A stretch of DNA of 64,000 bases. It comes from a virus. The notes below the pieces were generated by a model. That model was not told the DNA's origin. It was given only the letters and a program-made list of their open reading frames with translations, and searched no databases. The stretch lies in IMG/VR virus record IMGVR_UViG_3300009499_000053; one strand, 5' to 3'. Positions 1 to 34,026 of the stretch are shown piece after piece; the stretch's first letter is position 1, and each line of letters opens with the position of its first letter. Made by a program: the position numbers and the translations under genes.

Positions 1-737
1 ACCAAAGAGCTAGCTGAGATATACTTAGAAATGTTTGAGAGAGACAGAAAGAATCGTCCAACTTGTGCAACAAAGGAAACATGGTTCAATGTTGAAGAGA
101 GAGAGGTTGACCATGCCCTAGGGTTCCAAGATGCAAATAGATTCGTTTCAAGGAATAGGAACTTATACCATGTTTAATAGGGAACAGGCAGAAAAGGTTT
201 GGGATGAAATATTCCCAATGAAGAAGGGTCAAAAGGTTATTCTTCTTAAGACTACTATGTTCGGTACTAAAAAAAGGGCTAAGTTTCCTATGACTGTAAA
301 AGCAGGAACTAGGGGGGTAGTGGTTATGCACATAATAGGTGATCCTTTTGTAGAGGTAAACTTTGGATTCAGGGACTGGACTCATTTTATAGAGGTAGAA
401 CGGGTGAAGAGGTTATGGTAAGGGCTGAGTTTAGGATTACAGGATTCTATAGTTACGCTGGTTGGAAGACGGAACTAGAAGTTCGTGTGTCAATAGAGAA
501 TCAGGATAACTTCTACCTTCGTACAGCAAGAGATACTAAACTGGCGAAGGTGGTAGAGAAAGCAATAATCAGAAAGAAGTTTCTTTCCTCAGGAAAGAGA
601 GTCTACAGAAAGACACTTAGTGAAAAACAGTGGCTTCTTCTTAAAGCATTGAAAGAGGCAGGAAGTAAGTACTGGCATCTATATGAAAAGTTCCTAAGAG
701 AAGGAATGACACAAAAGGAACTTGAGGCTCAGATATT

Positions 738-1238
738 ATGGAGGGTTCTTTAGTGTTAAAAGACAAGGAACAGATAGAGATACTGAAGAAGATCATATCC
801 ATTAAATCTAGGGGAAAGAAGGTTGTGGCTGTAAGTGGAGGATTCGATCCTATCCATGTTGGTCACATACGTCATCTCAGAGGAGCAGGTAAAGCAGGAT
901 ACTACTTATTGGTTTTCCTTCAACCTGATGAATGGCTTATTAATAAGAAGGGTTACGCCTTTATGCCATACGAGGAAAGGAAGGAGATCCTAGAAAACAT
1001 ACTCTGGGTTGATGGAGTAGTCCCTGTTATAGACAAGGACAAGACAGTTGCTAAGACACTAGCGTTTTGGAAGCCTAGTATCTTTATGAAAGGGGGAGAT
1101 AGAACCCTAGATAACATTCCTAGATCCGAGAAGAAGTCATGTAAGAGGAATGGTATCAAGTTACAGTATGATAATATGGGAGGAAAAGTTCAGTCCAGTT
1201 CATGGTTAGTGGAGAAGGTGAAGAATGGTAAAGCCTGA
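738..1238 (+). CDS. HIGH-family nucleotidyltransferase (cytidylyltransferase/FAD synthase-like)
   Basis: VSGGFDPIHVGH motif, ERKEIL and KGGD motifs. Confidence 0.85.
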   Translation: MEGSLVLKDKEQIEILKKIISIKSRGKKVVAVSGGFDPIHVGHIRHLRGAGKAGYYLLVFLQPDEWLINKKGYAFMPYEERKEILENILWVDGVVPVIDKDKTVAKTLAFWKPSIFMKGGDRTLDNIPRSEKKSCKRNGIKLQYDNMGGKVQSSSWLVEKVKNGKA

Positions 1239-2433
1239 CAGTAAGAGGTTATGGGGTTGTGACGGAGCTTGGGAATCATTCTTTGGTGGTGTTCCAATTG
1301 GAAATAGTTGGTCTGCTGAGTTCCTTGATTGTAAGGGACTTTGTTGTTCTTCCTGTCTTGATTGGAAATGTAAAGCACGATGTAGAGGTAAGTCTCTTAA
1401 GAAGTGTCCAGCTAGGAAACCTTTTACAGACTTGATCTTTGAGTATGGAGTGTTTCAAAGTGGAAACAGAAAAGACAATTAAACTCTGGAAGAGACTGTT
1501 TGGTTACTCTGTAGGAGATATAGTTAGGGTAAATTGTCCTAAATATTGGAGCTATCATCGGTACACAGGAGTTATCATTCACGTCTTTCCATATGAACAT
1601 CGTATCCGTTATGTTGTACGATTCCCAAATCCTTCTAGGAACTTTCCCTTTAAAGAAGAATCACTTGTGTATGTGGGTTCGGTGATAAAGAAGCCATGAG
1701 AAGAGCAAGAAAGTGGACTAGGATAGAAGTAATAGAGGACTGTGTCTATGTAGATGGAGTCCTCTTTGGAAGAGGGTCAGTACGAGTATGGGGAACAAAG
1801 AATCCTCGAATTAGAATAGTGAGGTATGAAAATGACTATGGACAAAGATCGTTATAAACATCTGAAGTTCCTAGATGCTGTCTTTCCGGACATGCCTTTA
1901 GAACTTATAGTTAAGGTAAAGGATAAGAGGTTCAAGGAAGGCTGGTATCTTGGTATAATCGAAGGAGTCTTCCGTTCAGATTATCCTTTTAAGATCTACA
2001 AGATACGTCACTTAGTCTTCTACGAGAGATCTTACTGGGTCTTCAGGGATCATATTGAGGTTCCTGAGAGAGGTAATAAGAAGGACTTGATTAAGGAATG
2101 TCTGATTTAGTTAGATTCATAGATGGCTGTCCCCATTGTATTAACCATGGTGCAATGAATCGGGTAAGTAAACATGGAATGTGGCGTTGTCTCATATGTC
2201 ATGTTGGATATGATGAGATAGCAAAGAGGATCCTAAAGGATAGTACTGAAGGATTTAAAAAGAAAGGAGTGAAGAGATCAAATGAATAAGACAGATAAGA
2301 AGAAGACTAAAAAGGATATTGAGAAGAAGAGAAGGAAACTTAGAGAACTCAAAGAGAAAAAGAAGAAGCTCTTGTCAGAGTATCTTGCCCTTATACACAA
2401 ACAAACAGAATATAAGACAAGGGTATACATATC

Positions 2434-2754
2434 TTGAGTACCAAGTTTCTATACCCTAGGTTTGATAACTACTACTCTGACTGGCATCAACTAACCTTTG
2501 TCCTTGCAGATACTGCGTGTTTCATTGGTATATACTCTTTCTCAGAGGACTCCAGAGGTAAAGTTCACTCTCAGGTCTTTGCACTAAATCTCTCTAAGTT
2601 TCCTGAGGAGATACTGAACTTCAACCAAGAGTGGAAATGGGATGTATTCATCACAATCTTTAAAAGCGTGTGGCTACATGAATGGTTACACCTAGTTGGT
2701 TTATCAGAGAGGGGAGTTGACATAGCTAAGGAGTTAGGGTTTCCAGTTGCCTAA
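2434..2754 (+). CDS. small HEXXH-motif protein (putative Zn metallopeptidase)
   Basis: WLHEWLH followed by SE. Confidence 0.4.
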   Translation: MSTKFLYPRFDNYYSDWHQLTFVLADTACFIGIYSFSEDSRGKVHSQVFALNLSKFPEEILNFNQEWKWDVFITIFKSVWLHEWLHLVGLSERGVDIAKELGFPVA

Positions 2755-3068
2755 GATTTCTGACAATAGAATAGTCTGTCCTGTGAATGCATGGAGATTC
2801 CTAAGTATGCTAAAGGCAAACAAAGGTTGTACCAAAGTACAATGTTGTTTTCATTGCTCTAAGGACTACTGTATAGGTGGGGCAGGATGCTCTCCTGGTC
2901 ATAACATGGGCTTTAGATCTGTTTCCTATCCCATGGAATGTAAATCTTATCCACTAACCTTTGGTGAGGCTAAGAGGGTCTTTACATTCAGTAGACTATT
3001 CGACCGAAGGGAAGTAGATCCATATTTGGGGTATATCCGTTATGCTAAAGCAGTGGAGGTGTTTATGA

Positions 3069-3362
3069 GTGCCAAAAAAGAGAAAGAGTCAAGGTAGAAG
3101 AAAGGGCGGTAAAGGCAAAGGGACAATGGTACAATGTGCCTACTGTGGTAAGAGTGTACCAAGAGACAAGGCCAAGAAGGTCTACAGAAGATCTTCATTT
3201 GTTGATCCAAGACTTGCACATGAACTACGCCAGAAAGGAACATACATTCCTAGCTCCCAACAAGTACAGTTTGCCTGTATTAACTGTGCAGTACACAGAG
3301 GTCTCTACTCACCTAGACAAGCAAACCAGAGAAGAAAGCCCTTTCAGAAGAGGAGACGTTAG
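3069..3362 (+). CDS. rps26e: ribosomal protein eS26 (S26e)
   Basis: MPKKRKSQGRRKGGKG..VQCAYCGKSVPRDKAKK..CINCAVHRG is the archaeal eS26 signature. Confidence 0.95.
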   Translation: MPKKRKSQGRRKGGKGKGTMVQCAYCGKSVPRDKAKKVYRRSSFVDPRLAHELRQKGTYIPSSQQVQFACINCAVHRGLYSPRQANQRRKPFQKRRR

Positions 3363-3625
3363 TGTCTATATTTTCAAGTGAGTGGATTAAGTGACCACAC
3401 TACAGGAACGTCACCACATAGCTAAGCACTTTGACGACTTACTGTGTGAAGAGGCAAGAGAGTTCATTGCAAGATACCATCGTCATAAGACTAGAGGAAG
3501 TCCTGATAAGTACATTAGAGGAAGGTTCTCTGACCACTACTAGGGACATCCTCCCCGTAGTCCCCACAGTGGTAGTGGGGGTAGGGGTAGTGTATGATAC
3601 CAGTTCTAGAAGTATAATAGGAACA

Positions 3626-3633
3626 TTTATAAG
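3626..3633 (+). promoter_or_regulatory. archaeal TATA box upstream of ParB-like gene
   Basis: TTTATAAG about 25-30 nt upstream of the ORF at 3658, in an intergenic gap. Confidence 0.55.
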
Positions 3634-3657
3634 GTAGTTTGACATATATAGAGGTAT

Positions 3658-4440
3658 GTGAACGATATGACCAAAACGTTAAAGGTCGACAAGGAAGTAA
3701 TAGATTCCATCGAGAAGTCTTCTAAGAAGTTTGGACAGTTATATCCTGTTCTTGTGGATATAAATGGTAAACTGATCGATGGAGAGAACAGAAAGAAAGT
3801 TTTTGAGAATCCTTCTATTAAGAAGTTAGGGAATATTAAGACTAAGAAGGATAGACTAGAAGCACGGTTAGTAGCTAATCATGCACGTAAGGGTCAACAT
3901 AAGCAGACTTGGGTTCTTACATTAGACCAGTTAGCTCTCATCCTTGAGAGAGAAGGCGTTGAGAGTATTGGGATACAGATTGCTAAGGAGACAGGTCTTC
4001 CTTACAGAACTCTTATGCGATACTTACCATCACAGTTTAAGAATCAAGCACAATCTATTAGGGCCTCTCACCCTCGGTTGCCACATGGCACCCCATTACC
4101 AGAGGAGACAGAGACATCAACATCAGCGAGTTCGCTGGTGCAGTCACCTGCCAAAACGAAAGGAGAGGTTCATGTTCATCAATCACAGGAAAAGATTCCT
4201 GCTAGTGAAATCTTAGAGGATTTCAAGCCTTTGGTTGGAAAGGCAGTACCTAAGATTGAGATTAAAAGGTTCCCTAATCAACCATGGAAGGCTATCATAC
4301 TTCCACGAGACTTCTTTGAGAAGCTTGAGAGCGCATGTTCTAAGAGTCGCGTAGACATGGAAGAGGTTGTATCTCTTGCGCTGTTAAAACTCCTTGAGGA
4401 TTTGAGGAGAAAGAATAGATGCCTAGGAAAAGATCAATAG
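3658..4440 (+). CDS. ParB/Srx N-terminal domain protein
   Basis: GQLYPVLV..LIDGENR motif followed by HTH-like IAKETGLP. Confidence 0.8.
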   Translation: MNDMTKTLKVDKEVIDSIEKSSKKFGQLYPVLVDINGKLIDGENRKKVFENPSIKKLGNIKTKKDRLEARLVANHARKGQHKQTWVLTLDQLALILEREGVESIGIQIAKETGLPYRTLMRYLPSQFKNQAQSIRASHPRLPHGTPLPEETETSTSASSLVQSPAKTKGEVHVHQSQEKIPASEILEDFKPLVGKAVPKIEIKRFPNQPWKAIILPRDFFEKLESACSKSRVDMEEVVSLALLKLLEDLRRKNRCLGKDQ

Positions 4441-5232
4441 ATAGACTACTGACAAAGGCGACTAATGACTTTTCAGACATTAGTGACATTCACAAGAAGC
4501 TACTAAAGCTAGGCTATGGGAAGAACTTTACGATCTTCATGCAAGAACTAAAGGCAAGAGTCACCTACAGGAGAATATTTGAGTGAAAGTGTGTAATATA
4601 AGTACTGAGAAAGTGTTGAGTACGCTAGCCCGACCCCCAGGGCCATTGCTACCTAGCTCATCCCGAGATACATGGGAGGGGAGAATGAAATATTGTTATT
4701 ATTTGCCGACTGGTCCGTTGACATGCAATGCTTACATCGGTTCCTCTTTCTCTAAAATATTTATGGTTATGGAGTGATTGAAATGCATTACAAAATAAAC
4801 CGCAAGAAAAGACTAGTCACCTTCAAAGTCGGAGAAGAGATAGATACCAAGTCTTTCGAGGAAACTTGGGCTTTTATTTACCTCTTAATGAGGGCGATGG
4901 CTTCTAGTCATAGAGCGTGAGTTCGTGAATATAGAAGAAGCTCGTAAACATCATAAGAGACATGGGGATATGGATGGACGTATCTGCCTACTTAATGAGT
5001 GTCCAATTCATTATCCAAAGGAATCTTTACCAAGCATTTCTTTAAAGAACTGCACGGGAAAGAATGTCTTAAGAGTCAAAAGGGTAGGAGGAGACCTTGA
5101 GATACGAGTGATGGACTTATCCGATAGAACACTCTTCCAGGAGTGGTATCAGATAAAGAAACCACACAAGAAGAATTACAGTATAATAGAGAATCTGTTC
5201 AAACAGATCGAGAATAAAATAGTTATGGAGGA

Positions 5233-8225: not shown

Positions 8226-8528
8226 AGTAATTTAAGGTGACATAGCGATGATAGAAAATAACACCGGCCCTTCTAAGCTAGAGACTAAAGTCGATGACAA
8301 AGGTGGACCAGTTAGAGCTATTCACAATGTATGGAATAAGATCTTTCACTCAAAAGAAGAGTGTAGATATTACTGGGATGGAATGTGTATCTCCCAACTA
8401 TGGGAACGGTCCCAACTTACCCAGAAACAAGATTACCCCTCGGACTCAGATGAATGTAGTGAGATATGCTCATGGTTCGAGAAAGGAGTAACTCGTAAAG
8501 AAGTACAACATTTAAGGAGGTTAAGGAA

Positions 8529-8909
8529 ACGAAACTTAAAATATCCAAGAAAGAAATTAGTACGAAGACCACTTTAAGTACGAAGACCACTTTCCCACTA
8601 TACATAGTAATATACATAATATGTGCAATCCTAGGTTTCCTAGAGGCAGGCTTAGCAGGACTAGCAGTAGGTCTTGTTAGTGCAATCATGTGTTCACTGG
8701 TAGTTATCCTTGGAGTCATACCATTCGCAGGGATCTTTTTGTATCTCTGGATGACAGGTATGTTCAATGGTGTTCTAGCTGGACTAGGAGTCTCTGTACC
8801 GATAGCAATGACAGTAGCTTTAGTAGTCTTTGGACTTGTAGCAGGATTAGTATTTGTCTTCATGACCATCGTAGCAATAGTATTTATACTTAAGCTACTC
8901 TTCGGGTGA
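8529..8909 (+). CDS. multi-pass membrane protein; reading frame extends upstream of ATG 8688 to an ACG
   Basis: hydrophobic in-frame extension; GGAGG 8 nt before the ACG at 8529. Confidence 0.5.
   Translation, partial: TKLKISKKEISTKTTLSTKTTFPLYIVIYIICAILGFLEAGLAGLAVGLVSAIMCSLVVILGVIPFAGIFLYLWMTGMFNGVLAGLGVSVPIAMTVALVVFGLVAGLVFVFMTIVAIVFILKLLFG
8559..8593 (+). repeat. tandem direct repeat AGTACGAAGACCACTTT x2 (period 18)
   Basis: two exact 17-nt copies. Confidence 0.85.
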
Positions 8910-11069: not shown

Positions 11070-11168
11070 GCTCCCGTCATCTAGCCTGGCTAAGGATCCT
11101 AGGCTCTCAAGTCTCTCTATAGACGGAGACCCCTAGGGACATGGGTTCAAATCCCATCGGGAGCACCA
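11070..11168 (+). tRNA. tRNA-Glu(CTC) with short BHB intron
   Basis: GCTCCCG acceptor, CTAGG/CCTAG anticodon stem, CCA. Confidence 0.85.
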
Positions 11169-13261: not shown

Positions 13262-13486
13262 CTATAAATATTTCACAACTTAAGGTGACAAAGAAAAATG
13301 TTTAGAATCCTGATTGGAACATTTGTAATAGTAGGAACGCTTGTTGTTGGGTACATAGCCTTAAGAGTATGCTTCAAGGCTACTCCTATTCCTGGAACTC
13401 ATGAAAGAGAAGCGATTGAAACTAAGGAAAGGATAGAAGTTGAAGAAGATCCTTTCAATCCCTCCTCACGAAATCATTAAAGGAAG

Positions 13487-14478: not shown

Positions 14479-16035
14479 TTGTTGAGAATGAAGAGTCTAA
14501 GACATAATGGAATCTACATCCCAGTAGTACCTAGGTATGACCTAGCAGTTACCATAGATAACAAGAAGGTAACTCTGTCTCTCAAACAAGAACAGATGGC
14601 TATGTCTTGGGCTAAGAAGCTTGGTACTCCTTATGTAGAGGATGAGATCTTTAGGAAGAACTTCTTCAAGGACTTCTGTAATAGTCTAGGAATAGACCAC
14701 ACAGAGACTATAGACTTCTCTGAGTTTAGTCTATTGATAGATAAGGAAAGATCTGAAAGGGAGGCACTGAGTAAGACAGCAAAGAAAGCTACTGTCCTAG
14801 CAAGAAAGGTAATTAGAGAGAAACGTAGAGATGAGTACGGTACTGCAATCGTTGATGGTAATAAGGTAGATATATCCAACTACATAGCAGAACCCTCATG
14901 TATCTTCATGGGTAGGGGGAAACACCCCTTAAGAGGTAGTTGGAAGGAAGGACCGATACAAAATGAGATTACTCTGAATCTTTCTCCAAAGGCGCCCAGA
15001 CTTAAAGGATGGAAAGCACTAGTCTGGAAACCAGGCAAGATGTGGGTAGCATCATGGGCAGATAAACTATCTGGGAAACGTAAATATGTCTGGTTAGCAG
15101 ATGACTGGGGTAAGAAGCAGGAAAAGGAAAAGAGTAAGTTTGATAAAGCATTAAAACTAGAGAAGAATCTTAGGAATGTCCGAAATCTAATTCTAAATAA
15201 CTTATCTCATGAGGATAAACACATTCGAAAGGTAGCTTCTGTATGCTATCTTATCCTAAAGACCAACATACGTGTTGGGGATGAGAAGGATGAAGATGAA
15301 GCAGATACGATAGGAGCTATTACCATTCGACCTGAACATGTAACTATTAGGGGACGATTCTCAAAAGCAAGATCACATGGTTATGATCTCAGTCTCCACT
15401 TCCTAGGTAAAGACTCTGTAGAATTCACTAAGACCCTCATAACTGCAGACAGAAGATTCGTATTTAATCTGAAGGACTTTGAGAAGAAAGGTCATGCATA
15501 TTTTGAGGGAGTTACTTCTAAGGATGTCTCTAAGTTTCTACGTAAGGCCCAAGATGGGATGACAGCCAAGGTATTTAGGACATTCAGGGCTACTGAAGCA
15601 GTAAGGGATGCTCTGAAAATAGGTAGGGGACTCTTCTATAAGCCTGAGCATTTTACTGAGAAGGTAAAGAAGCTACATATTAAGTTCTGTATCCTTGAGG
15701 GCTCAAGAACATGCAATCATAAGAAAGCTCTACCTAAGAACTTTGAGGAGAGACTAGCTAAGAAAAAGGATAAAGTATCTCGTTATATAGAGAAACAGGC
15801 AGAGATGGCTAATGGTTCAAGGAAAGGAGATCGTGAGAAGCTAAAGGATCAAGTAGCAGTTGCAACATTAGAGTGTGAGTTCTTTAAACAGACCTCAGAG
15901 TGGAATCTAAATACTACTCTTAAGTCCTATATTGATCCCCGACTAATGAAGATAGCATGTGACAAGGCTGAACTTCCTTATGATAAGATCTATAGCAAAG
16001 CACTATTAAAGAAGTTTTCTTGGTGTCTTAATTGA
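14479..16035 (+). CDS. top1B: DNA topoisomerase IB (archaeal, eukaryote-like)
   Basis: GRGKHP, IRVG, FLGKD, AKVFRTF, CNH and catalytic Tyr in KSYIDPR. Confidence 0.95.
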   Translation: MLRMKSLRHNGIYIPVVPRYDLAVTIDNKKVTLSLKQEQMAMSWAKKLGTPYVEDEIFRKNFFKDFCNSLGIDHTETIDFSEFSLLIDKERSEREALSKTAKKATVLARKVIREKRRDEYGTAIVDGNKVDISNYIAEPSCIFMGRGKHPLRGSWKEGPIQNEITLNLSPKAPRLKGWKALVWKPGKMWVASWADKLSGKRKYVWLADDWGKKQEKEKSKFDKALKLEKNLRNVRNLILNNLSHEDKHIRKVASVCYLILKTNIRVGDEKDEDEADTIGAITIRPEHVTIRGRFSKARSHGYDLSLHFLGKDSVEFTKTLITADRRFVFNLKDFEKKGHAYFEGVTSKDVSKFLRKAQDGMTAKVFRTFRATEAVRDALKIGRGLFYKPEHFTEKVKKLHIKFCILEGSRTCNHKKALPKNFEERLAKKKDKVSRYIEKQAEMANGSRKGDREKLKDQVAVATLECEFFKQTSEWNLNTTLKSYIDPRLMKIACDKAELPYDKIYSKALLKKFSWCLN

Positions 16036-16766
16036 ATAAACCAAATACACAAACTGAGCTAATGATTCAGTTAACATACAAGTGCACCCTTGACTGTATC
16101 CACTGTTCCTATGGAGGCATCAGAGATTGTGGATCAAAGTATGGGCCTGATGTTTGGAGCTTTCTCTATCAATACAAACCTCAACTAATAAAGATAAGTG
16201 GTGGAGAACCCACCCTCTCAGAGAACTTTGACTATGTAGTACGTGGTTGTAAGGAGACTGGTGCTAAGGTAATAACATTCACTAATGGTCTCCAGGAACC
16301 TAGGATTCATCCAGACTTCTACTGGGTTAGTCTCTATGGTAACCGTAAGATCCATAACAGTATTACCAGAGCAGATACCTTTGAGAAGACTGTAGCATTC
16401 ATAGAAGCACACGAAGTAGAGTATCTTAATTCTCCTGTCTTCGGCAGACAACAGTTAAAGAGTCTAAGAGAGATGGGAGAGAAACTTGATATTCCATTAA
16501 GGATAACACGAATGATTGCTCATGGAAATGCTACCAATGTTCTACCTCTCTACAGACAACAGAGACTTGTAAAGAGTCTAAAGTTAGATAAGAAACCTCA
16601 CTGGGTTACATGTAGTCTAGGAATGGAACCTTCTCGTTGTTGGAAGAAGATATGTCTTAGACCTGATGGAAGTACGATAATATGTACAGCTCTAGTAAGG
16701 GGATTACCATGTCCATTCAGAAAGAAAATATCAACTCTACTCTGGAACAAACTCTTCAAGCAATAA
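16032..16766 (+). CDS. radical SAM protein
   Basis: CTLDCIHC, SGGEP, TNG; C-terminal Cys cluster. Confidence 0.9.
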   Translation: MNKPNTQTELMIQLTYKCTLDCIHCSYGGIRDCGSKYGPDVWSFLYQYKPQLIKISGGEPTLSENFDYVVRGCKETGAKVITFTNGLQEPRIHPDFYWVSLYGNRKIHNSITRADTFEKTVAFIEAHEVEYLNSPVFGRQQLKSLREMGEKLDIPLRITRMIAHGNATNVLPLYRQQRLVKSLKLDKKPHWVTCSLGMEPSRCWKKICLRPDGSTIICTALVRGLPCPFRKKISTLLWNKLFKQ

Positions 16767-18378
16767 AACTCTGGAGGGAACTCTTCGGAGTATACCAAGA
16801 GGATGATATTGTACAACTCTTTGATGGGAGCATCGGGAGGATAAGGGGTACCTCACATGGTTGGGATCCTGTGCTCTATGCTATAGCAAATCTAAAGACT
16901 GATAGATTTATGGGCTGGTATCCCGTTAGTTCCTTTAAATTCATTAGGATAAGTGATAAGAAACTTGAGGAGTTACAAAGGAAAAGACTCTCAGCGTTAT
17001 AAGATAATAAAGGGCAAGAAGGATTATGAGTGTCTTACGTGTGCAAAAGCGATTGAGAAAGGACAGAAACATCTTGTTATCACACACTTATCAAAGTATC
17101 TTATGGAGTCCTTTACAGCACTAACTAAGTATCGAATATACATCCAGATCTTTGAGGCTTTTATTTCTCTAAGATTCTGCTCAAGAAGATGTTACAACCT
17201 TTGGTACAATTATGATGCTCGGGGTTACATTGGTGAGGAAGCTAAGTCTGTCCTTAAACGTCTAAGAAAGTTAGAAATAGAGGCACGAATTAGAAGACTA
17301 AAAGGATGGAAGCAATTCAAGGTGTGGCAAGAAGTCTTTCAACCATTAGATGATAGATACAGAGTTCATTAAAATGTCTGTACGTAATAAGAACTTTAAA
17401 CTTAAGTTCAGAGGAGCCAGAAGGGTATTCTACCTAGAAGATAAAGCCTTTGAGGTGGAACCTAGGAGGAAGAACTACAAAGAATTCTGGAGAAGAGTCT
17501 TTGGAGGAAATCGTCTTCCAGTCTGTCCTGTCTGTAAGATAGATCTTATCTTAACTACTATTGACATAGCAAGACCATGTTCTGTCACTTCAGGTTATGG
17601 AACAAGGGTACAACTTCCTTCTGAGTTACAGATCGATTTAAAGTTTCAGTGTTCTAAGTGTGGAACCAAGGTAGAAGGAATTGGGGAAAAGATTACCTTT
17701 GACTCAAGTCCAAATATGAAATGGTTTTCATTAGAAGAACTAAGACTAACACATTATGACTTGAGGGCTCCACCATGAGAGACCCACGTTTCGTCTGGAG
17801 AAGGATCTTCGAAGACTTTGAAGTACATGATCGAGTAAAGATCATCAATCAAGTATGGATCTACTCAAATCAGATAGGTTATGTGGTTGAAAAGCAGTTT
17901 GTTGAAGGAAGATGGTACTATCTCCTTTGTCTACCTGAAGAAACTTTTAAGATCCTAGGACATAGTAAACATAGTGAAGCTAATACAGCAGGTTGGTTCA
18001 AGAACGTAGATCTTTGTCTTGTAGAAGAGGATGAGAAACCTGGACCCCTTTTTAAAGGACTGCGGGGAACGATGTCTCATAGATTGAGGGATAGAATAAA
18101 ATGGATAAACAAGATGAAACCATAAGTAAGAAAGAGGCAAAACGTTTGTGGTCTCATCTCTTTGGAGAAGAGGACACTGCTAAATTAGATAATCTAACGG
18201 ATAAGGAGTTTGATACTCTAGTTGAGTTCTTAGATAAGATAGACTCTCCTATAGATTGGGAAGCAGACAGAAGCTCTAAAAAGGTTCTCCTATGGAAACC
18301 AAAGACTACAGAGATCAAGTACAGAGACTATATGGCTTTGATACTCTTGTTCGCCTGTATGAGAGGGGAAGGAAATAG

Positions 18379-19179
18379 ATGGTTGAAGCCAATGAAGAAG
18401 GTTGTAAAATGGATTTAGAAGAGCAAATGCGAATAATAGCAATAGTTAAGTGTAAACTCAGTGCAAAGTCAGCTAGACTAATAAGTCTGATGATCTCAGG
18501 TAGTGACCTATATGGATTCAGTTCTTATGATAGTGATGTAGACCTTAGAGGTATCTTTATCTATAATACTAACGCTCTCCTAGGCCTAGAACATCCTAAG
18601 GAGACTATAGAGATGAAGATAGGAAACTATGACATAGTGATGCATGAGTTAGGTAAGACTATGAAACTAGCATACAAAGGAAACGCTAACATCCTAGAGC
18701 ATATCTCTACTAAACAGATCTACACTAGCCTAGAGTTTCTAGAACTACAGGACTTAATAGTTCTCAATAAAAAGGGAATATACAACTCCTTCAAAGGACT
18801 AGCCACTCACAACTATAAGAAGTTCATAATGACTGGTAGGAAGAAGACTATCAAGAAGTACCTATATGTCTTCAGGGGTCTTATGGCTGGAATCTATGCT
18901 CTTCAGGTAGGGAAACTAGAACCTGATCTGGAGAAACTTAGTAGACATTTTAAGGTACAAGAGGTAAAGGCTCTAATCAAGTTAAAGAAAGAAGGTAAGG
19001 AGAAAAACGGTCTACCTCCTAAGATGGATACTGGCTCTATAGAACTAGCAATAGAGAAACTCTTCTCTAAGATAGACAAAGCCTACGTAAAGACTTCCCT
19101 TACTGAACCTACTAAAGATGACTGGAAAGAACTGAATAACTTTCTAGTTAAGACAAGGAAGAAATACATTGATACTTAG
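18379..19179 (+). CDS. Pol-beta-superfamily nucleotidyltransferase (YcgL/phage type)
   Basis: GSDLYG..SDVDLRG, KGN, KKYLYVFR. Confidence 0.85.
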   Translation: MVEANEEGCKMDLEEQMRIIAIVKCKLSAKSARLISLMISGSDLYGFSSYDSDVDLRGIFIYNTNALLGLEHPKETIEMKIGNYDIVMHELGKTMKLAYKGNANILEHISTKQIYTSLEFLELQDLIVLNKKGIYNSFKGLATHNYKKFIMTGRKKTIKKYLYVFRGLMAGIYALQVGKLEPDLEKLSRHFKVQEVKALIKLKKEGKEKNGLPPKMDTGSIELAIEKLFSKIDKAYVKTSLTEPTKDDWKELNNFLVKTRKKYIDT

Positions 19180-20734: not shown

Positions 20735-21417
20735 TACTTTGACTAGGGGACAAGTAAACCCCTTTTTTATTAAATAGGAAGTGATGGATTGAAAGGAAGA
20801 TTAAATAAACCTAAGTCCTGTCCTGAATGTGGTGGAGACCTTAAATGGAATGGTCTGCTAAGACTCTATACATGCACTAGTTGTGGTATAGAGATGACTG
20901 AGGATAGGAGAAGAGAGTTAAGTTTCCACAGAAGAGCAGAAAAGAAAGATCGGATCAAAGAGTATGTGGATTGGTGGCTCTCAAAGAAATGATAAATAAA
21001 GAATTCTGGAATAGATTCTTCCATCCTGAAGAATATTGTGTTTTTAGAGGTCCAGAATACTTAGGATTTGTAACCCCAAGAGTTCGACACAAGTGTATGT
21101 ATAATCCTTATAACAGATTCTGTAAAGGAGCATGTCGATATCTCAAGTTCGATGGGGATAATAATTATGAGGATTAAATGCTCTCATATCAAGAAACTAA
21201 AAGTATTAGAAGAATCTGCAGAGAAACTGGGAAAGGAACTTTCTGTAATTCGCTTTATTTCATATTTCAAACTGGCTCAGGAATACTGTAAGCACCAAGA
21301 TGCAAGGAATGCCTTGGAGAGAAGCCTAAGATATTGTATCCCATGTAAGAATACCCCATGTCGTTTCTCAAAGAAAGCACACAAAATCTTTTGGAGAGTC
21401 TTTTGGAAGGATCAGGA

Positions 21418-22386
21418 ATGAATAGAGAAATATACCTAAAGTCACAGAACAAAGATGTTATTACACTGTACATTAGACCAGATACCTCTATACAGAAGGT
21501 AATGGCCCTTCTAAAGAGAGAGGAACCGATTATCTCTAACATAAAGAGTAGGGTAACTCGTCAGGGAATACAAAACTCATTCCAGAGACTTAAGTCATTC
21601 CTAAGAGGAGCACCACCTTCTCTAAGTGGGTATATCATCTGTTGTATGCCTGGTAAACTTGTCTACATTAATGATATCAGGGTAGAACAGGATAAGTACT
21701 TCTGTGGAGGAGAGTTCTATGCTGTTCCTCTTGAAAGTGTTATGACTGCTAAACTGAATCCCATAGGTATTCTAACACTTGACTCTAAGGAGGCCACAAT
21801 AGCCTACATAGGTAACAAGATAGAAATCATTAAGAATATGACCTCTGGAATACCAGGGAAACATGGTAAGGGCGGACAGTCAGAGGCTAGATTCACTAGG
21901 AATAGACAGGAGCAGGTCAAACAATTCTACAAGAGGGTTGGGAAGGCATGTTCAGTCTTTGTAACTGCATACCCAATCACTGAACTTATAGTCGCTGGGT
22001 GTGGGATAACTAAGGAAGGATTCCTCAAGGGAAAGTATATGGACTACCGTCTAAATGACAAAGTTTCTGTGGTCCTGGATACACAATACACCGGTGAGTA
22101 TGGAGTCAGAGAAGCACTACATAAGGCACTTCCCGGTCTAAGGAAGAATGCATTTGCTCATGAGGTAAGGGCTGTAGAAGAGTTCTTTAATCTCCTAGGG
22201 AAACAGTTTCACTGTGTAGTCTATGGAGAGAACGAAGTACAGAAAGAACTTCATCTAATTAACAGGATCATTAAGATCGAGGAATACAAGAAGGAGTATC
22301 CAAAGGAAACAACTGTACTGCACTTCCAAGGAGATCACTACCTTAAGATTAAAAACTTAGGTGGAGTTGTGGGAATCAAATGCTAG
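21418..22386 (+). CDS. prf1: archaeal peptide chain release factor aRF1 (compact C-domain)
   Basis: NIKS, YFCGGEF (YxCxxxF), KHGKGGQS. Confidence 0.93.
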   Translation: MNREIYLKSQNKDVITLYIRPDTSIQKVMALLKREEPIISNIKSRVTRQGIQNSFQRLKSFLRGAPPSLSGYIICCMPGKLVYINDIRVEQDKYFCGGEFYAVPLESVMTAKLNPIGILTLDSKEATIAYIGNKIEIIKNMTSGIPGKHGKGGQSEARFTRNRQEQVKQFYKRVGKACSVFVTAYPITELIVAGCGITKEGFLKGKYMDYRLNDKVSVVLDTQYTGEYGVREALHKALPGLRKNAFAHEVRAVEEFFNLLGKQFHCVVYGENEVQKELHLINRIIKIEEYKKEYPKETTVLHFQGDHYLKIKNLGGVVGIKC

Positions 22387-22775
22387 ACTCTAAGAAACTA
22401 TGGACAAAACTCTTTAATAGAAAGGAGAACTGTGCACATCGTGGATACTTATTCTATCATGGTTGTAGTAGAAAATATGAATCTCATTGCCTTAGAAGAT
22501 GGAAAGACGATGGTTACAAATACTACTATCCCGTTTGTAAGGAAATCTGTAACTTCTTTAAGAGGAAAAGATAGAAATGGATAAGGAAGCTAAAGTCAAA
22601 CAATTCTACTGTGAACTATTTGATGATCATGAGTGGGATCAGTATGGTAAACACTTTTGGAAGGATGGACTAGAGTACGCTCGTCTAAAGTGTACCAAGT
22701 GTGGTAAGAAGAAAGTAGAGACAGTACCAGCGTTCCTTAGTACACCTTTTGTGTATCTAGTAAGGAGAGAGATAA

Positions 22776-23084
22776 TTGAAGATTGATCTTAAAATAACAT
22801 ACTACTACATAGTCAACACAGACCTCAAAATGAGTAAGGGGAAGATAGCAGCCCAAGTATCCCACGTAGCTATGAAGCTTGGGAAGGAGTATGGGACTAT
22901 TGGTAGGGCAATAGTACTGAAGGGTAATACAATGATACTTAACAAACTAATGGGTCTCCATGATGTTGTGTGTATAATAGATGCTGGACTAACAGAAGTA
23001 CCCAAGGGTTCATTAACATGTATAGGCTTCAGAAAGGGAAGTAACTATCCATCTGAATTGGCTACTAAATTAAAACTATTGTAG
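22776..23084 (+). CDS. pth2: peptidyl-tRNA hydrolase Pth2
   Basis: DLKMSKGKIAAQVSH, IIDAGLTEVPKGSLTCIG. Confidence 0.93.
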   Translation: MKIDLKITYYYIVNTDLKMSKGKIAAQVSHVAMKLGKEYGTIGRAIVLKGNTMILNKLMGLHDVVCIIDAGLTEVPKGSLTCIGFRKGSNYPSELATKLKLL

Positions 23085-23355: not shown

Positions 23356-23753
23356 AAGAAGACATAAAGTTCGAAGTAGGTAGTCCAGAAGAAAAGGAAC
23401 TAAGGAGTAACCTACTACACATAGTTTACCACGGAACTAATAAAGAGAATGCTGAGATGATACTAAAGGAAGGATTCAAACCCGGTACGTACTTTGCTAA
23501 GAATCTAGCAGAGGCACTGATGTACGGTGGTGGGCATGTATTCGAAGTATTGATGAAACACAAACATGATCCTTACTGGTTCGAACACTTTAGATGTTGG
23601 CAGATAAGCAACAAGAACCACTTACCAATTAGCAAGATAATAACCCTGAGGGTGTACTCAAGGAAAGACATTTTTGCTGATGAGTCAATCAGAAAGGAAG
23701 TAGGAAGGAGAGGCATTGAATACTACAATAAAGTCGGTAGATACTTGCGATAA
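23343..23753 (+). CDS. ADP-ribosyltransferase-fold protein
   Basis: VYHGT..ILKEGFK..GTYFA..A..Y pattern. Confidence 0.55.
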   Translation: MWEMKEDIKFEVGSPEEKELRSNLLHIVYHGTNKENAEMILKEGFKPGTYFAKNLAEALMYGGGHVFEVLMKHKHDPYWFEHFRCWQISNKNHLPISKIITLRVYSRKDIFADESIRKEVGRRGIEYYNKVGRYLR

Positions 23754-24385
23754 AGAAAACTTAGAGGAATTTTGGTGTAGTGTCTTTGGTCACAGGTACA
23801 GATTATCAGGTTATATTGGGGTAGCAGCAGGGAATAACTACTGGAAGAACATTACCGCTTGTGAATGGGAATGTTTAAAATGTGGTAAGTCCACTACTGT
23901 AGTAGGGAAAGTAGAAACATTCAATCCTCCTAAAGATGGAAAAGTGGTGTTTTAGAATGGTTAAGTTTAATTCAAAGACGAAAGGTAAAGAGAAGAAAGA
24001 GTTAAAGAAGCTTCAGGAAGAGTTTAATCCCTCTGCTCGTGATCCTTATCCTAACAAGGAAGACAAAGAGGAGAAAGCTGATCAATCGATAAATTCCTTG
24101 GAGGCTTTAGCTGCTGCTATGATGGCTGAGGGTAAGTCCTACGAGAAAAAGAAGAAGGACAAAGAAGATAAAGTAGGTGAATGAATAAATGGAAGTATGT
24201 TTGTGTGATAATTGTCGCAAGCAATTAAAATGGAAACCAGAGGAAAGAGGTTATTCTTTAAAAATTACCCTTTACAAACCTTGGTGTTGTGAATGTTATA
24301 GAAGTAAACATGAGGAAACTAATCTTGGTTTCTGCTCTAAGAAATGTTTAGTTGAATGGCTTTCAAAAGAGAGGAATGAATAGAC

Positions 24386-24491: not shown

Positions 24492-24503
24492 TGTATAATC
24501 AAA

Positions 24504-24620: not shown

Positions 24621-24626
24621 ATCATA

Positions 24627-27571: not shown

Positions 27572-28050
27572 ACTCCTAGTATATGGAGTAACTGAGGATA
27601 ACATCCTAGCCTTTCAACTAGGAGCACACGGTATCTACCTGGTTAGAACTGTCCAGATAGAGACCTCTGAAGAGAAGAGACTAAACCCAATGATGGCTGT
27701 TATTCGTTACAACGCAGACAAGGATATCTACTGTTTCTTAAAGAACACAGATATTTTGTCCTTTAGGATATTCAAACATGCCATCTTCAAGACTAAAGCA
27801 AGAACCAAGGCATTCTTCTACTCAGTAGCTAACAATATTCTAGGTCTAGCCAAGGGTAAAGTTCTTAGGATCAAGTCTAAACATCAGAAACTTAGAAAGG
27901 AACTCTATGACATTGCAGTCAAGGTAAACGAAGAAGGAAAATTCGAATGTAGCTTTGACTATGATAAGTATGATCTACTCCTTGAGTTGAAGAAATTCAA
28001 CACTAAAGACAAGACTTGGTTCGTGGTAACAACAATAGGATTGGACGATA

Positions 28051-29289: not shown

Positions 29290-29334
29290 GGAAAGGCTTA
29301 AAGATGACAACTCCCTCATATACTCTGAGAAGCA

Positions 29335-29931
29335 ATGACAATCAGAGAGAAAAGCAAAGTCGTTTCATTAAGGGGTCCAGCTGGTTATCATAAGGTAACT
29401 GAGAAAGACGAAAGTGGTCATGCAGTTACAATAGACACTGATCATCACTTAGTCCACGTAGGAAGATATTTCATCGTAGATGACATTGATATTGAGGTTG
29501 ACATTGCTGCTCCTAAAATATGGTACTTTGAAACCCCAGATGATGACACGCGTATCCATATATACTTCCAGGGGAGTGTATCCAATGCAGGGACATTTGA
29601 ACTCTTTGAAGGCGGATCAGTCTCTGTTCTAGGAAGCGCAGTATCACCAACTAATCTAGATCGTAATTCTACCAGAGAATCAAAAATGAACTTCTATAGA
29701 GATTCAACTGTCGGAGATCTTGGTACATTTCGTATGGGAGTCTTCCTAGGCGGAGCTTCTCCAACCCCAGTACCAATAGGTGGGTCCGCAGATCGTAGGA
29801 CTGAAATGATTCTTAAGAAAGCAGAGAAGTACATTGTTAGATTCTCTCCAGTAAACAACGATACTGTTGTAAATATCTCCTTCAAATGGTATGAAGCAGA
29901 ATATCCGTCTGATGACATTATAGATCCTTAG
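29335..29931 (+). CDS. beta-rich protein, possibly a virion structural protein
   Basis: acidic, beta-strand-rich, C-terminal WYE; composition unlike the Lys-rich neighbours. Confidence 0.35.
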   Translation: MTIREKSKVVSLRGPAGYHKVTEKDESGHAVTIDTDHHLVHVGRYFIVDDIDIEVDIAAPKIWYFETPDDDTRIHIYFQGSVSNAGTFELFEGGSVSVLGSAVSPTNLDRNSTRESKMNFYRDSTVGDLGTFRMGVFLGGASPTPVPIGGSADRRTEMILKKAEKYIVRFSPVNNDTVVNISFKWYEAEYPSDDIIDP

Positions 29932-30787
29932 TTTTATCTTAAATAGGTAGGGAGGGTAGGAATTGTTAGACATCTTTCACAAAGATTGTGATAAGAGAAA
30001 CAAGAAAGAACAGAGATATATTGATCTTCACATACCAAAACGTTTTGAAGAGAAACTATACTTCCTAATAGGATACAGTTTTAAGAACTTTGAACTCCGT
30101 ATAGACCTAGACTTTTGGTTCTTATGGTACAAGGATCATGAACTAATGATTTTCCGGTGATAATGATGGATCATCAGAGTCCCTTCTACAGATGTCCCTA
30201 CTGTAAAGGAAGGGTTATTGAAAGTAACCATGATGGAATTCATATGTTCTGTAAAGAGTGTGGAAGAGAATGGGATCCTTACAAGGTCAAGAGAGAGTAA
30301 GAATGCCAAAACACTGTTTTTTCTGTGGTTGTCCTATTGTTGAACGCTATGGTAAAGGTCTCTATTTCCTTCGTTGTACAGAATGTGGTAGAACATGGGA
30401 CGAGAGAAGAGAGAAGTAGTTAAAAAAGAATGGTGTAATATCCTAACAGAGGTTCCTGAGTGCGAAGGAAAGTGTTGTCAGTTCTGTGAACAATTCCTTA
30501 TGGGAATATGCATCTATTGCTGTACAAGGAGTGCTCCAAAGAAATGTCTAGAACTCGTAGACGAACGGACTTTCTTCTGGACTAGGGTATTCCGCTGAGT
30601 AAGGGGTTACACACATGATAGAACCATGTGAGAATGATCTTTTCTGGAAGAAACTCTTCGAGGGTAACTGGTACTTAGTTAAAGTCTCTACTCGGAACAT
30701 TAACATCTTAGGATTAAGACACATATTCTACAGAATAGAAAGATGGTGTAATGACACAACAGATAAAGAGAAGATAATAACTCATAA

Positions 30788-31183
30788 GTGGGAAGATGGA
30801 AAATGCATAACAAAGGTACGCTTACGATCGTTATAGTGGGTTCAGAACAGAAGAAGTGGTCTTACCATAAAGAGTCTATCTGTAGAGCTCTGATAAAAGA
30901 ATTCATGGAAGAACACCCAGATGAACTCTACATCTCAGGAGAATGCCATAGGGGAGGAGTAGATCAATGGGTAAAAGAGATAGCACATAACCTTAATAAG
31001 CGGTATAAAGGATATCCTCCTAAGGAACGAAAGTGGTACTACTACAAGAAACGTAACATCAAGATGGCTGAGATTGGGGATGTAGTAATCGACTTAGAAC
31101 CATTCGGTTTTACTTCTGGAGGAACCTGGACAGCAAATTATGCTAAGTCGATAGGGAAGAAGGCAGTCACGGTTGAGATATAA
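30788..31183 (+). CDS. SLOG/YspA-like protein
   Basis: IVIVGS, ISGEC..GVD, KRN..MA, SGGTWT. Confidence 0.7.
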   Translation: MGRWKMHNKGTLTIVIVGSEQKKWSYHKESICRALIKEFMEEHPDELYISGECHRGGVDQWVKEIAHNLNKRYKGYPPKERKWYYYKKRNIKMAEIGDVVIDLEPFGFTSGGTWTANYAKSIGKKAVTVEI

Positions 31184-31537
31184 TGAACGATAAAGAGAAG
31201 ACAAAGAAACTCTGGAAGAAGTTGTTTCAAAATAAAGAAGAATACACTCTTGGTATATGGCCTTTCACTAAATCAAAACTCAAGAAACAAAAGGAATGGG
31301 AGAAGAAATAGTAATGGGAAAGTGGAGAGAAGAGACTAAGATTCTATCCTGTGGTTGTAAGATAGGTAAAACAGGGAAAGGTCCTTGGTTCCTTGACTAC
31401 TACTGTAAAACACATGTAGAGGAAGTTAGGACTAATGGTAGATTCGATCTTGAGAAGGCTTTTAAGTATTTGGAGAAACTGAATAAGATGCTGAAGAAGA
31501 ATCCTCCTCCAGACGTTTTTAAGGAAGGAAAGGAAGA

Positions 31538-32254
31538 ATGAACGGAACAATTGCAACTTTCCTTATTATCATGGCTTTCATAGCTCTATTTGCAGGAACT
31601 GCTTACTGGATAGGAACAAATCAACTTCCTCGTGATGTAAAACAATATGAGCAACTCATAACACAAATGGATACACAGGAAAGCAAACAGGCCTGGATTA
31701 AAGAGTTTCCAGAGACATATGGACTTGATTGGCAAGGGTGTTTAGACTGGTTATCCTATCACATGATATATGGTCTCTCTAACAGAACTAAGGTTCTATG
31801 GGAAGTAAAGGTAGATAATGAAGGAAGACCCCAAGATCCTATTGAGATAATGAAATCTACCTGGATTACAAACCTTACAATAAGAACTGATATGGGTTAT
31901 GGAGAGTACTATTTAATCTCCAAGTTTCCATGTGTTCTAGGTCTATGTGGTGAACACACCATAGTCTATACCCAGTTACTCCTAGTTAATGGTTACTCAC
32001 CAAGAATGATGATAGGACACCATGATGAAGGAGACCATGCTTGGGTAGAGATAGATGGATTAACTACTATAACTATAGATCCTACAGATGCAGTAGCATG
32101 GAGACAAAATAATCCTACTTCTTTCTGGGATTATTGTCCTAATATTTCTAGAACTACAAATAAACTCTGGGGAGATAGGGTATGGACACGAGTCCATAGG
32201 ATAAGTAAAAGAGGAACAACAGAAGTAACGGAGGAATATAATAATGAAGTTTAA
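31538..32254 (+). CDS. membrane-anchored transglutaminase-like protein
   Basis: N-terminal TM; triad GLCGE / DHAWVE / IDPT. Confidence 0.75.
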   Translation: MNGTIATFLIIMAFIALFAGTAYWIGTNQLPRDVKQYEQLITQMDTQESKQAWIKEFPETYGLDWQGCLDWLSYHMIYGLSNRTKVLWEVKVDNEGRPQDPIEIMKSTWITNLTIRTDMGYGEYYLISKFPCVLGLCGEHTIVYTQLLLVNGYSPRMMIGHHDEGDHAWVEIDGLTTITIDPTDAVAWRQNNPTSFWDYCPNISRTTNKLWGDRVWTRVHRISKRGTTEVTEEYNNEV

Positions 32255-34026
32255 GGGTAGTGACATAGTCAAGACTCCAGATGGTAAATCCTGGTTCTAT
32301 GATGAGAAGCACCATCAATGGATAGAGGTAACAGAGTCTAAGAAGATGAGAAAGAGTACCTTTGTCTCAATCTAAGAAAGAGGAATAATTAATGGAAAAT
32401 ACACCTTTCCTAGCTAGTCAGAAACACAGAGAAGGTGAGATACAGGAATCTCATGATGAGATAAGGGACTACTATGACTTTAAGTTCTGTCCCTGGTGTG
32501 GAGTAGATCTCATAGAAGAACTTCAATCGCGAGGTAAAGAAGATGAACAAAAAGAAATGCCCGAGTTGTAAGGGTAGAGGCGGATGGTTCATACCTTCAC
32601 ATAGACCATTCTTTCTTACATGGTTTACCTGTGGAATGTGTGGAGGAAGTGGTAGAATAGATGACAATGAATCCAAGTCAGAGAACTGAAGAATATATCA
32701 TACTCTTTGATACGAGGTTGAAAGGAATAAACATTCTTATAGATCAGAAATGTTATGAACGAGTAAGTAAAAAGAAGGATATACTTCCTATGATTATAGA
32801 GATTATCAAGAACAAGAATGCTAATAACTTACAGGTCTTTGTCCTAGGAAAAGAACTTAATGTCGAGTGGGAATAATGGATCCAAAACTAGTGTGGGAGA
32901 GGGTCTTTAAATCAGATGAGGAGATATACTCAGAGATGATTATAAAGAAACTTCAGAAAGAAGCAGATCAAAAGGCAAAACGTCATAAACTACGAACTAA
33001 TGCCCTTCATTTCATTAGAATCCATGAGTATGAGATAGTTTCCAGAAAGAAAAGAATGGAAGTTCATAAGTGTAAGCTCTGCTCTAAGTTACAGACAAGG
33101 AAAGAAAATGGTGCAGGAAGCTGGAGCGGAGAAATAACTGGTTTTATGTTTCTTGTGGCTGTTCTTTTAACCATATTCTCTCTAGGAATGTTAAGTAGTG
33201 GTAGTTCCCTTGGACTTATCCCAGGTACCTTAGGAATAATATCAGCATATATAACACTGAAACGAGCTATGGAATAATTTGGTAGTGAGAAAATGACAGA
33301 CCTATTAAGACACTCAGAGGGGATATGGAGAAGTATCTATGTCTTCGCTCTGATAAAAGAGCATTATCGTATTATTGAATGGTTCAAGAAGGAGATGAAG
33401 AAGCTTAAGATAGAAGGATATTCATGGTGTCACTATGGAGAAGTAAGAGGTCCAGTACCTGTTCTTTGTGAGAAGGAACATATTACCTTTAGAGTAGACT
33501 TCCCAGGAACTACATCCTATAATTCCTTTAGAGCAGATCTAGAGAAAACAGAATGGAAATGGGAAGATCATGGTTATGACGAGCCTCTCTGGGTTAAAAG
33601 GGCTTATGAACTAGGAACTAAGCTCTATGAGATGGTAATGGAAACAACTAAAGGACCAGATGTAAATATGAACAATAACTTTATGAGAATACTTCTACAT
33701 GGTTTCTTTAATGATGCACACATGAACTCTAAAGAGGAGACAGAGTTCTACTTATTCCTGTTTCAGTCTTACTTAACAGCTAGGTATGGACTAAGGCCAG
33801 GAGGAGTTAACGATAGTATCCCATAAGAAAGAGGTGGAAAGGATTGGTTAGGAAAGTGGAAGGAAGTATAGAACTAAGCAACAAGCTCATGGAAGTAATT
33901 GTTGCTGATCTGAAGAAACTCTATGGTTCCTACTGGAACTTTGAGATAGGGTTTATGGAAGGTTCAGATCCTAAGAAGAACTTCAGTTTGAAGGTTAAAG
34001 TATACAAAAGGTAAGGAGGAATTGGA

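Follow-up and report, generated by a model that had tools for sequence, protein, structure and literature searches.

The 64,000-nucleotide stretch of viral DNA held as IMG/VR record IMGVR_UViG_3300009499_000053 (hereafter the window, whose positions serve as coordinates throughout) raises the question of why one short peptide, [LFV]Wxx[LIV]F, recurs in so many small and dissimilar open reading frames (ORFs) of its left half, and of what this peptide might be for. A preliminary description of the DNA had interpreted these hexapeptides as an amphipathic-helix docking motif for a common partner. The analyses reported here define a portable, terminal amphipathic helix that is under peptide-level purifying selection on a four-residue face, is attached to unrelated protein bodies and occurs in one virus clade. 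With a probability of roughly one half, we infer that this helix is a tag docking on a shared receptor, exposed on its carriers and read in trans by a protein.

All 17 Trp-type and both Tyr-type hexapeptides of that description were found, in frame, in the ORFs named for them, and each of the six consecutive ORFs between 16032 and 18418 contains the motif. Enrichment over shuffled ORFs was assessed on a greedy + strand gene set comprising the ORFs left of 33.3 kb, with 1000 within-protein shuffles. The left-half ORFs hold 15 matches to [LFV]W..[LIV]F, whereas the shuffles give 0.39 on average and 4 at most, and the middle of the motif is polar in all 15 (0.107 expected); the right half yielded two matches against 0.28 expected, both with a non-polar middle. 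The suspicion that the Trp and Phe content of these ORFs might explain the frequency was not borne out: the left and right halves have Trp contents of 2.0% and 1.8% and Phe contents of 4.4% and 4.3%, so composition does not account for the excess, and an artefact of this kind was ruled out. The assignment of the motif to the left half of the window captures part of its range. The motif is enriched there, as had been described, but the block of tagged genes continues upstream of position 1: in an upstream walk on the identical 157-kb ENA contig, 36 tags were counted between -18.7 and +33.3 kb, against 1.1 expected.

We also considered that the tag might be the chance translation of a signal in DNA or RNA, such as a promoter, a binding site or a recombination site. 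A third-base C is indeed over-represented at the two aliphatic tag codons (20 and 24 of 36 copies, against 9.3 and 6.5 expected). This excess, however, is part of a genome-wide context bias, in which Leu, Val and Ile codons preceding a T-starting codon favour a C ending (CTC reaches 42% before Phe and 13% overall), and hence marks no special DNA signal. The motif is moreover locked to the reading frame, a six-frame search having returned only two + strand and two - strand matches outside long ORFs. The Phe codons of the tag divide into 19 TTT and 17 TTC, the Phe, Lys and Arg codons follow ordinary usage, and many different codons encode the polar positions. A DNA-level motif is thus ruled out by the frame-locking, by the normal use of synonymous codons and by the genome-wide codon context, which leaves that explanation a negligible probability, and the motif is selected as a peptide. 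As a separate observation, the preference for C-ending codons may reflect avoidance of T runs (archaeal terminators).

Alignments of 36 tag copies from the focal element and of 80 copies from eight genomes define a core composed of [LVF], W (less often F), a polar residue, K or R (less often E), [LIV] and F, with a hydrophobic residue at position -8 in 71% of the aligned copies. In the flanks, position -7 is often S or T and position -4 often E or K, K is the leading residue at both -2 and -1, and the core is followed by G (+6) and P (+7). The tag looks like a discrete amphipathic helix of ~13 residues, of which the motif is the last turn, with helix-breaking G and P at the C-terminal end and, possibly, an N-terminal cap provided by the S or T at -7. 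Four hydrophobic side chains lie on a single face of this helix, and the hydrophobic moment of tag 12-mers is 0.51, compared to 0.30 for random 12-mers. The net charge averages +1.9 against a background of +0.65 and ranges from -3 to +7, with 6 of 38 tags at or below 0. As had been noted, the motif usually sits near a terminus: among the focal tags, 27 of 36 start within the first 30 residues (12.3 expected under uniform placement) and five lie no more than 12 residues from the C-terminus, so that 32 of 36 are terminal. Across the eight genomes, the 80 tags comprise 55 N-terminal copies, 14 within 12 residues of the C-terminus and 11 others. Each carrier bears one tag, with a single overlapping exception in the relative L122.

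Judged from their sequences, the carriers do not belong to one family, their bodies being KOW/SH3-like, Cys-rich, Zn-ribbon, membrane-like, radical-SAM and MoxR in type. An all-against-all phmmer comparison with the tag masked (E <= 0.01) linked almost no carriers. At least four cysteines are found in half of the 80 carriers and a KOW-like first strand in about a quarter, and the KOW/SH3-like, Zn-binding or Cys-rich, and helical bodies of the preliminary description were all recognized among them; a Pfam search of 20 carriers returned none above cut-off and no KOW match. In a Cys-rich family with the signature C-x-G-x-C-C-x-x-C, the tag is C-terminal in two members, one of them ORF 30395-30598 (FWTRVF, 30575-30592, + strand, one residue from the C-terminus), and lies near the N-terminus in ORF 1225-1482 (variant AWESFF, 1267-1284, + strand, residue 15). 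The predicted fold of a Zn-ribbon carrier is of low confidence (predicted local distance difference test, pLDDT, 65) and gives a hint only, and ORF 32867-33277 has two C-terminal hydrophobic segments that are apparently transmembrane. The possibility that all carriers are one homologous family, which would have undermined the proposal, was ruled out for the whole set by the tag-masked search, the Cys-rich family and the radical-SAM data presented below; it does hold for the KOW-like subset.

This KOW-like paralogue family comprises ~13-20 carriers, about a quarter to a third of the total, and is represented here by ORF 1439-1699 (tag LWKRLF, 1484-1501, + strand, residue 16). A word-based homologue search with this ORF returned only itself, exhaustive profile search being needed to find relatives. 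Its AlphaFold2 model, calculated from a 16-paralogue alignment (pLDDT 80), is composed of a helix at residues 4-21, including the tag at 16-21, and five subsequent strands; both the five-stranded barrel and the G-D-x-V-x-V first strand of KOW/SH3-like domains are present. Exhaustive structural alignment (VIA) matched the barrel to the KOW domain of M. jannaschii Spt5 (Z 8.3, root-mean-square deviation 2.8 over 60 residues), to Tudor domains (Z 8.1-8.2) and to NusG KOW domains (Z 7.1-7.2), borderline values at the upper edge of the range of unrelated models that lend support at the level of the fold only. These matches start at residue 19-23, and the helix therefore lies outside the shared barrel fold. 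Furthermore, the 370-residue protein P0026 consists of five tandem barrels of the KOW/SH3-like family, each starting M-K-F-K-V-G-D, that have no tag helix. A barrel-only hidden Markov model (HMM) found no truly tag-free member in the focal element, the four 'tagless' matches having a degenerate helix, and ~19 database homologues of the family keep the helix. Because the helix is constant in this subset, 'tag' and 'family feature' are indistinguishable within it.

Portability is best followed on the radical-SAM-like ORF 16032-16766, which carries LWNKLF (16740-16757, + strand) two residues from its C-terminus and has 18 homologues at 50-72% identity. Its membership of the radical-SAM family is indicated by CX3CX2C at residue 18 and by a Pfam E-value of 0.006 that is below cut-off for the window protein itself, the orthologues scoring 29.4-37.6 bits for Radical_SAM and PF04055 being precomputed on 15 homologues. 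We compared the tails of 17 members, namely the window's own protein and 16 homologues with sequences read. In seven, the protein runs ~14 residues past a conserved C-P-F and ends [LV]-W-[NES]-[KE]-[LM]-F; in nine, it stops directly after C-P-F and has no tag. Homologues without the helix, which the preliminary description had proposed to look for, thus exist, and folding and function of the enzyme therefore do not depend on the tag. The homologue P0046 has no C-terminal tag and instead bears on its N-terminus a tag and KOW module similar to ORF 16682-17002, a fusion which hints that the products of these neighbouring genes work together. Both tagged enzymes with a readable context are in tag-rich DNA, one in the focal virus and the other in the syntenic L133 (46% GC; five tags against 0.19 expected), whereas the two readable contexts of tagless enzymes, L130/L131 (52% GC) and L132 (31% GC), contain no tags. 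As far as these contexts reach, the enzyme carries the tag only where the genome at large uses it.

The same data bear on a RiPP-like explanation (after ribosomally synthesized and post-translationally modified peptides), in which the tag would be the substrate or leader of a modifying enzyme and the neighbouring radical-SAM protein, with its extra C-terminal cysteines, would recognize or cross-link the Trp/Lys/Phe helix. The radical-SAM gene does come first in the series of six tagged ORFs, SPASM/twitch-type maturases are its best, though weak, family matches, and one homologue is fused to a tag and KOW module. However, all of these family scores are far under the cut-offs, no NCBIfam subfamily being reached, and the enzyme is itself tagged, like a client. 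A maturase would be confined to genomes with tagged substrates, and radical-SAM homologues at 50-54% identity occur in DNA with no tags at all, which argues against the enzyme as a dedicated tag modifier. We therefore consider this explanation very improbable.

The tag block, contiguous on a circularly permuted genome, spans ~60 kb, from -26.9 to +33.3 kb, and strict carriers make up 38 of its 166 ORFs, so that about a quarter of its small proteins are tagged. It starts right after a pair of genes encoding a MoxR ATPase (phrog_1297, E 3e-85) and a metallopeptidase-vWA protein in which HExxH and DxSGS motifs accompany DUF2201_N and DUF2201 domains (L126:4140-6576, ~21-23 kb upstream of window position 1), and a second MoxR-like ATPase, at 34.0 kb, lies close to its right-hand end. 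No protein of this region is better conserved than the vWA-peptidase (67-83% identity across many metagenomic relatives), which was therefore used as the anchor to find relatives. Ten close loci (vWA identity 67-76%) contain 35 tags against 3.0 expected, the three with none being contigs of 1.9-3.6 kb, in contrast with eleven distant phage loci with MoxR/vWA genes (27-32% identity), which contain four against 3.05 expected. Relatives found with the KOW profile are likewise dense in tags, with nine in L122 (0.79 expected), three in the 1.9 kb of L127 and six in the 4.4 kb of L128. In addition, the MoxR ATPases of seven close relatives end in an invariant tag-like K-[LI]-W-K-F-I-M, whereas four distant MoxR proteins are without this tail. 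On this distribution, the tag is specific to one virus clade. An exact-pattern scan of IMG/VR with K-L-W-[KR]-K-L-F-G returned no multi-tag relatives, and an unrelated single-copy family of ~60 residues on small marine viral contigs (L005-L037, 4-14 kb) was seen to start M-I-K-Y-L-K-K-L-W-K-K-L-F-G. Within the clade, four orthologue pairs of the focal virus and L133 (34-66% identity) keep the hydrophobic residue, the Trp, the second hydrophobic residue and the Phe, while the polar positions vary, including in charge (K/R to E, S or A).

In the mechanism that we favour, the four conserved hydrophobic side chains would insert into a hydrophobic groove on a single common receptor, which might be a viral or host protein or assembly. 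Small modules (Zn-ribbons, Cys-rich knots and KOW barrels) and enzymes (radical SAM and MoxR) would in this way be brought to the same place. Such docking is favoured by the presence of the same helix at either terminus of unrelated bodies, and by an enzyme that has acquired or lost it in parallel with the use of the tag across the genome. The original proposal of a docking motif for a common partner stands as regards the amphipathic, terminal helix; as regards the partner, no protein was identified. Several points weigh against docking. No reader of the tag was found, and a four-residue hydrophobic face beside K and R also fits a lipid-binding helix. No KOW-like member is without the helix, intact or degenerate, which could be a structural part there, and the confident linker between helix and barrel in the model is compatible with packing of the helix on its own barrel. 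Finally, several L122 orthologues have a helix that is amphipathic but in which L or M stands in place of W, and L, M, C or E in place of F; the Trp/Phe signature is therefore strongly favoured and not indispensable. When the metallopeptidase-vWA protein (50-row alignment) was co-folded with residues 1-30 of ORF 1439-1699, the score was 0.00, a result that carries no weight either way.

The main rival, which we regard as serious although unlikely, is a membrane-targeting sequence (MTS), an in-plane amphipathic anchor like the C-terminal MTS of MinD, whose partner would be lipid. The tag has the terminal amphipathic helix with a hydrophobic face of a MinD-type MTS (moment 0.51 against 0.30; 32 of 36 terminal; helix 4-21 in the model), its mean net charge is above background, and Trp is favoured at membrane interfaces. 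Its hydrophobic spacing i, i+1, i+4, i+5, with basic residues between and a Gly after, is presumably also that of the E. coli MinD MTS. The latter is a transplantable module formed by a terminal amphipathic helix, and a single copy of it is too weak to bind alone (PMC8155659), whereas the tag occurs as a single copy on dozens of monomer-sized proteins. Unlike the MinD MTS, the tag has a nearly invariant Trp; its charge varies widely around a positive mean, orthologues flipping their polar positions; its hydrophobic face consists of four residues only; and in ORF 32867-33277, which apparently already has transmembrane segments, an anchor would be redundant. The resemblance is thus confined to generic MTS features.

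Virion or capsid targeting would be a special case of docking, in which the tag would bring its carriers to a scaffold, the procapsid interior or an assembly chaperone for packaging and delivery, and we judge it fairly improbable. Packaging peptides have precedents in the T4 capsid targeting sequence (CTS) and the encapsulin cargo-loading peptides. No known precedent is closer than the CTS, which occurs on IPI-III, Alt and the products of the polymorphic internal protein (IP) loci of T4-like phages: in both cases, small, unrelated proteins of a tailed virus, hypervariable in their bodies, share a single short peptide at a terminus. A common viral partner reads the CTS, whose position is always N-terminal; the prohead protease cleaves it at (L/I)xE, and a handful of proteins bear it. 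The tag is a different peptide in a virus that is probably archaeal, has ~40-60 different carriers per genome, far above any known packaged set, and is C-terminal in 17% of copies (14 of 80 in the eight genomes; 5 of 36 in the focal element). It is followed by no conserved cleavage motif beyond G/P, positions +6 and +7 being mostly these residues with no conserved E, although another protease specificity is possible. The tag block does start directly after the MoxR and metallopeptidase-vWA pair, and the MoxR beside it itself ends in the conserved tag-like tail; for jumbo phages, a role of such a pair in virion assembly and in peptidolytic processing has been proposed (PMC7824862). On the other side, the tagged genes are in a block of small, early-looking genes outside the structural module, and packaging is unlikely for the carrier ORF 32867-33277, which looks like a membrane protein. 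There might also be no shared reader: a few rapidly evolving paralogue families (KOW-like and Cys-rich) would have inherited the helix as a structural element, which would pack on its own body and would have been spread by gene duplication and retention of 5' ends. The constancy of the helix or its degenerate form among KOW-like paralogues, its retention in the ~19 database homologues, the confident helix and linker in the model and the tolerance of Trp/Phe loss by L122 orthologues that stay amphipathic are all in line with such an origin. This explanation nevertheless appears improbable, given that the same four-residue face recurs on unrelated folds at either terminus, that the helix is added past the conserved radical-SAM end only in tag-using genomes, that barrels without it exist in P0026 and that the structural neighbours of the barrel do not include it.

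Two further systems offer a comparison with the docking helix. Like the tag, the encapsulation peptides of bacterial microcompartments and the cargo-loading peptides of encapsulins are short amphipathic helices found at either terminus; a short linker connects them to unrelated cargo, and their hydrophobic face docks on a shell protein. The focal virus differs in having no known shell except the capsid, and in having far more carriers, mostly tiny binding domains rather than enzymes. PIP-box and other clamp-binding peptides are terminal, have basic flanks and dock a few hydrophobic or aromatic residues in the groove of a hub, as proposed for the tag. The PIP box, Qxx[LIVM]xx[FYW][FYW], was not found in it, however: the anchor is a Trp occupying the aliphatic slot, the Q position is mostly K (position -2 is K in 32 of 80 copies, R in 9, E in 9, N in 7, D in 5 and I in 4, Q not being among the six commonest), and the last two residues are [LIV] and F, the second-last being aliphatic and not aromatic. 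The tag thus fails the testable defining features of both the T4 CTS and the PIP box. The principle of one short terminal peptide on unrelated proteins that are read by a hub is known. A literature search for the tag hexapeptides returned chance matches only, and no description of the peptide or of tag systems in archaeal viruses was found in the literature searched.

Were the tag an address label, roughly one in four small orphan genes of the block would gain a common handle, and one reader protein, or a membrane, would organize dozens of otherwise uninterpretable mini-proteins. The radical-SAM family offers a clear-cut natural instance in which an enzyme gained or lost a short linear motif in step with genome-wide use; to our knowledge, such cases are few outside eukaryotes. 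The tag marks a whole clade with at least ten distinct metagenomic relatives in a field, archaeal virology, that is short of functional leads, and it could serve as a portable targeting peptide. Should it instead be a lipid anchor or a family-specific structural helix, it would provide a useful annotation and nothing more.

The other tagged ORFs of the window are likewise on the + strand. KOW-like bodies are encoded by ORF 131-421 (VWDEIF, 197-214, residue 23), a KOW/SH3-like protein matched by the barrel-only HMM, by ORF 16682/16709-17002 (LWRELF, 16769-16786, near the N-terminus) and by ORF 17775-18125 (VWRRIF, 17793-17810, residue 7). The Cys-rich product of ORF 8248-8577 (VWNKIF, 8329-8346, residue 28) is weakly related to those of ORF 20971-21177 (FWNRFF, 21004-21021, residue 12) and ORF 22380-22574 (LWTKLF, 22398-22415, residue 7), which are also Cys-rich. 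Zn ribbons are found in ORF 17350-17778 (FWRRVF, 17485-17502, residue 46) and in the mutually related ORFs 22577-22786 (Tyr variant FYCELF, 22604-22621, residue 10) and 23716-23955 (FWCSVF, 23770-23787, residue 19), and a Zn-knuckle in ORF 16953-17372 (VWQEVF, 17322-17339, 10 residues from the C-terminus). ORF 4419-4586, with the Tyr variant TYRRIF at its C-terminus (4563-4580), is a weak member of the set. The acidic body of ORF 18101-18418 (LWSHLF, 18146-18163, residue 16) looks helical from sequence, and ORF 30615-30836 carries FWKKLF (30642-30659, residue 10). The 42-residue ORF 31183-31311 (LWKKLF, 31210-31227, residue 10) is hardly more than the tag, and in ORF 32867-33277 (VWERVF, 32891-32908, residue 9) a coiled-coil-like region accompanies the two C-terminal hydrophobic segments.

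The window DNA corresponds to a 157,032-bp ENA metagenome contig and to JGI contigs, one single-nucleotide polymorphism (SNP) apart. This SNP, G>A at 17204, is the only difference over the 21 kb compared; in the ENA and JGI copies it introduces a stop at a Trp codon of ORF 16953-17372 and so removes the last 55 residues, tag included; it is a nonsense polymorphism in the population. Between 16709 and 16786, the 3' end of the radical-SAM gene overlaps the 5' end of the next gene in a different frame, and the two tags in this segment are encoded 29 nt apart in near-repeat DNA (C-T-C-T-G-G-A ... A-A-C-T-C-T-T-C).

A second tag, [FWY]NP[ST]xR (tag B, the helix being tag A), was found in 31 ORFs between window positions 13298 and 63578 and forms the final residues of the protein in 13. 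It resembles tag A in belonging to the same genome, in being attached once per protein to small Zn-ribbon or Cys-rich bodies and in its block-wise distribution. In contrast with tag A, it is a different peptide that is not helical-looking, lies mostly at the extreme C-terminus and occupies another genomic block, differences in peptide, terminus and location which suggest a different reader. A two-letter address code, in which tags A and B, each with its own receptor, would sort ~100 small modules and several enzymes to two destinations or machines, is a tentative and rather doubtful extension. It would amount to sorting by virus-encoded short linear motifs in an archaeal virus, possibly one with an Asgard or TACK host, and if true would mean that ~100 small binding modules and several enzymes are sorted during infection. 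The two MoxR-type ATPase modules flanking the tag A block would be the first candidates for readers in such a code. A tag A Zn-ribbon (L041:2601-2849) was observed to be weakly similar (E 0.004-0.008) to the tag B Zn-ribbons at 38384, 38901, 45981, 46217 and 58243.

The tag A block also contains conserved untagged proteins. A large one of 508 residues (L041:8064-9590), with orthologues at 27-38% identity in L122 (L122:3522-4934), L137 and L142, had no Pfam, PHROG or PDB sequence match, and when the conserved untagged proteins of 508, 448, 129, 122 and 136 residues were compared with PDB, PHROGs and Pfam, a SWIM finger was the sole informative match.

The genes of the window are small and tightly packed, all on the + strand, in DNA of ~40% GC. 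Their products include a eukaryote/archaea-type topoisomerase IB, an eRF1-like protein, Ro60/TROVE, an RNA ligase, RlaP, ribonucleotide reductase and several AAA+ ATPases, and Alba, ribosomal protein S26e, archease and PTH2 are precomputed matches on the same DNA. The nearest genomic relatives of the topoisomerase IB are in archaeal metagenome-assembled genomes (40-48% identity) of Bathyarchaeia, Hadarchaeota, Aenigmatarchaeota, Heimdallarchaeota and Nitrososphaerales. Based on this gene content and on these relatives, we take the element to be a large uncultured tailed virus, probably of archaea. A megablast of 20 kb of the window against phage records gave no match, the best tblastn match of Ro60 was to a haloarchaeal virus (33% identity), and the topoisomerase IB relatives in IMG/VR (L001 and L002; 30% identity) had no tags. 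The 'Nidhogg' viruses described in an Asgard virus preprint likewise encode Ro60 and an RNA ligase (10.1101/2021.07.29.454249), a parallel that serves as a clue to the host and no more. The window also contains a cluster of 15 tRNA genes at 10.2-13.3 kb, within which ARAGORN predicted a 99-nt tRNA-like gene (11070-11168) with an undetermined anticodon and, possibly, an intron.

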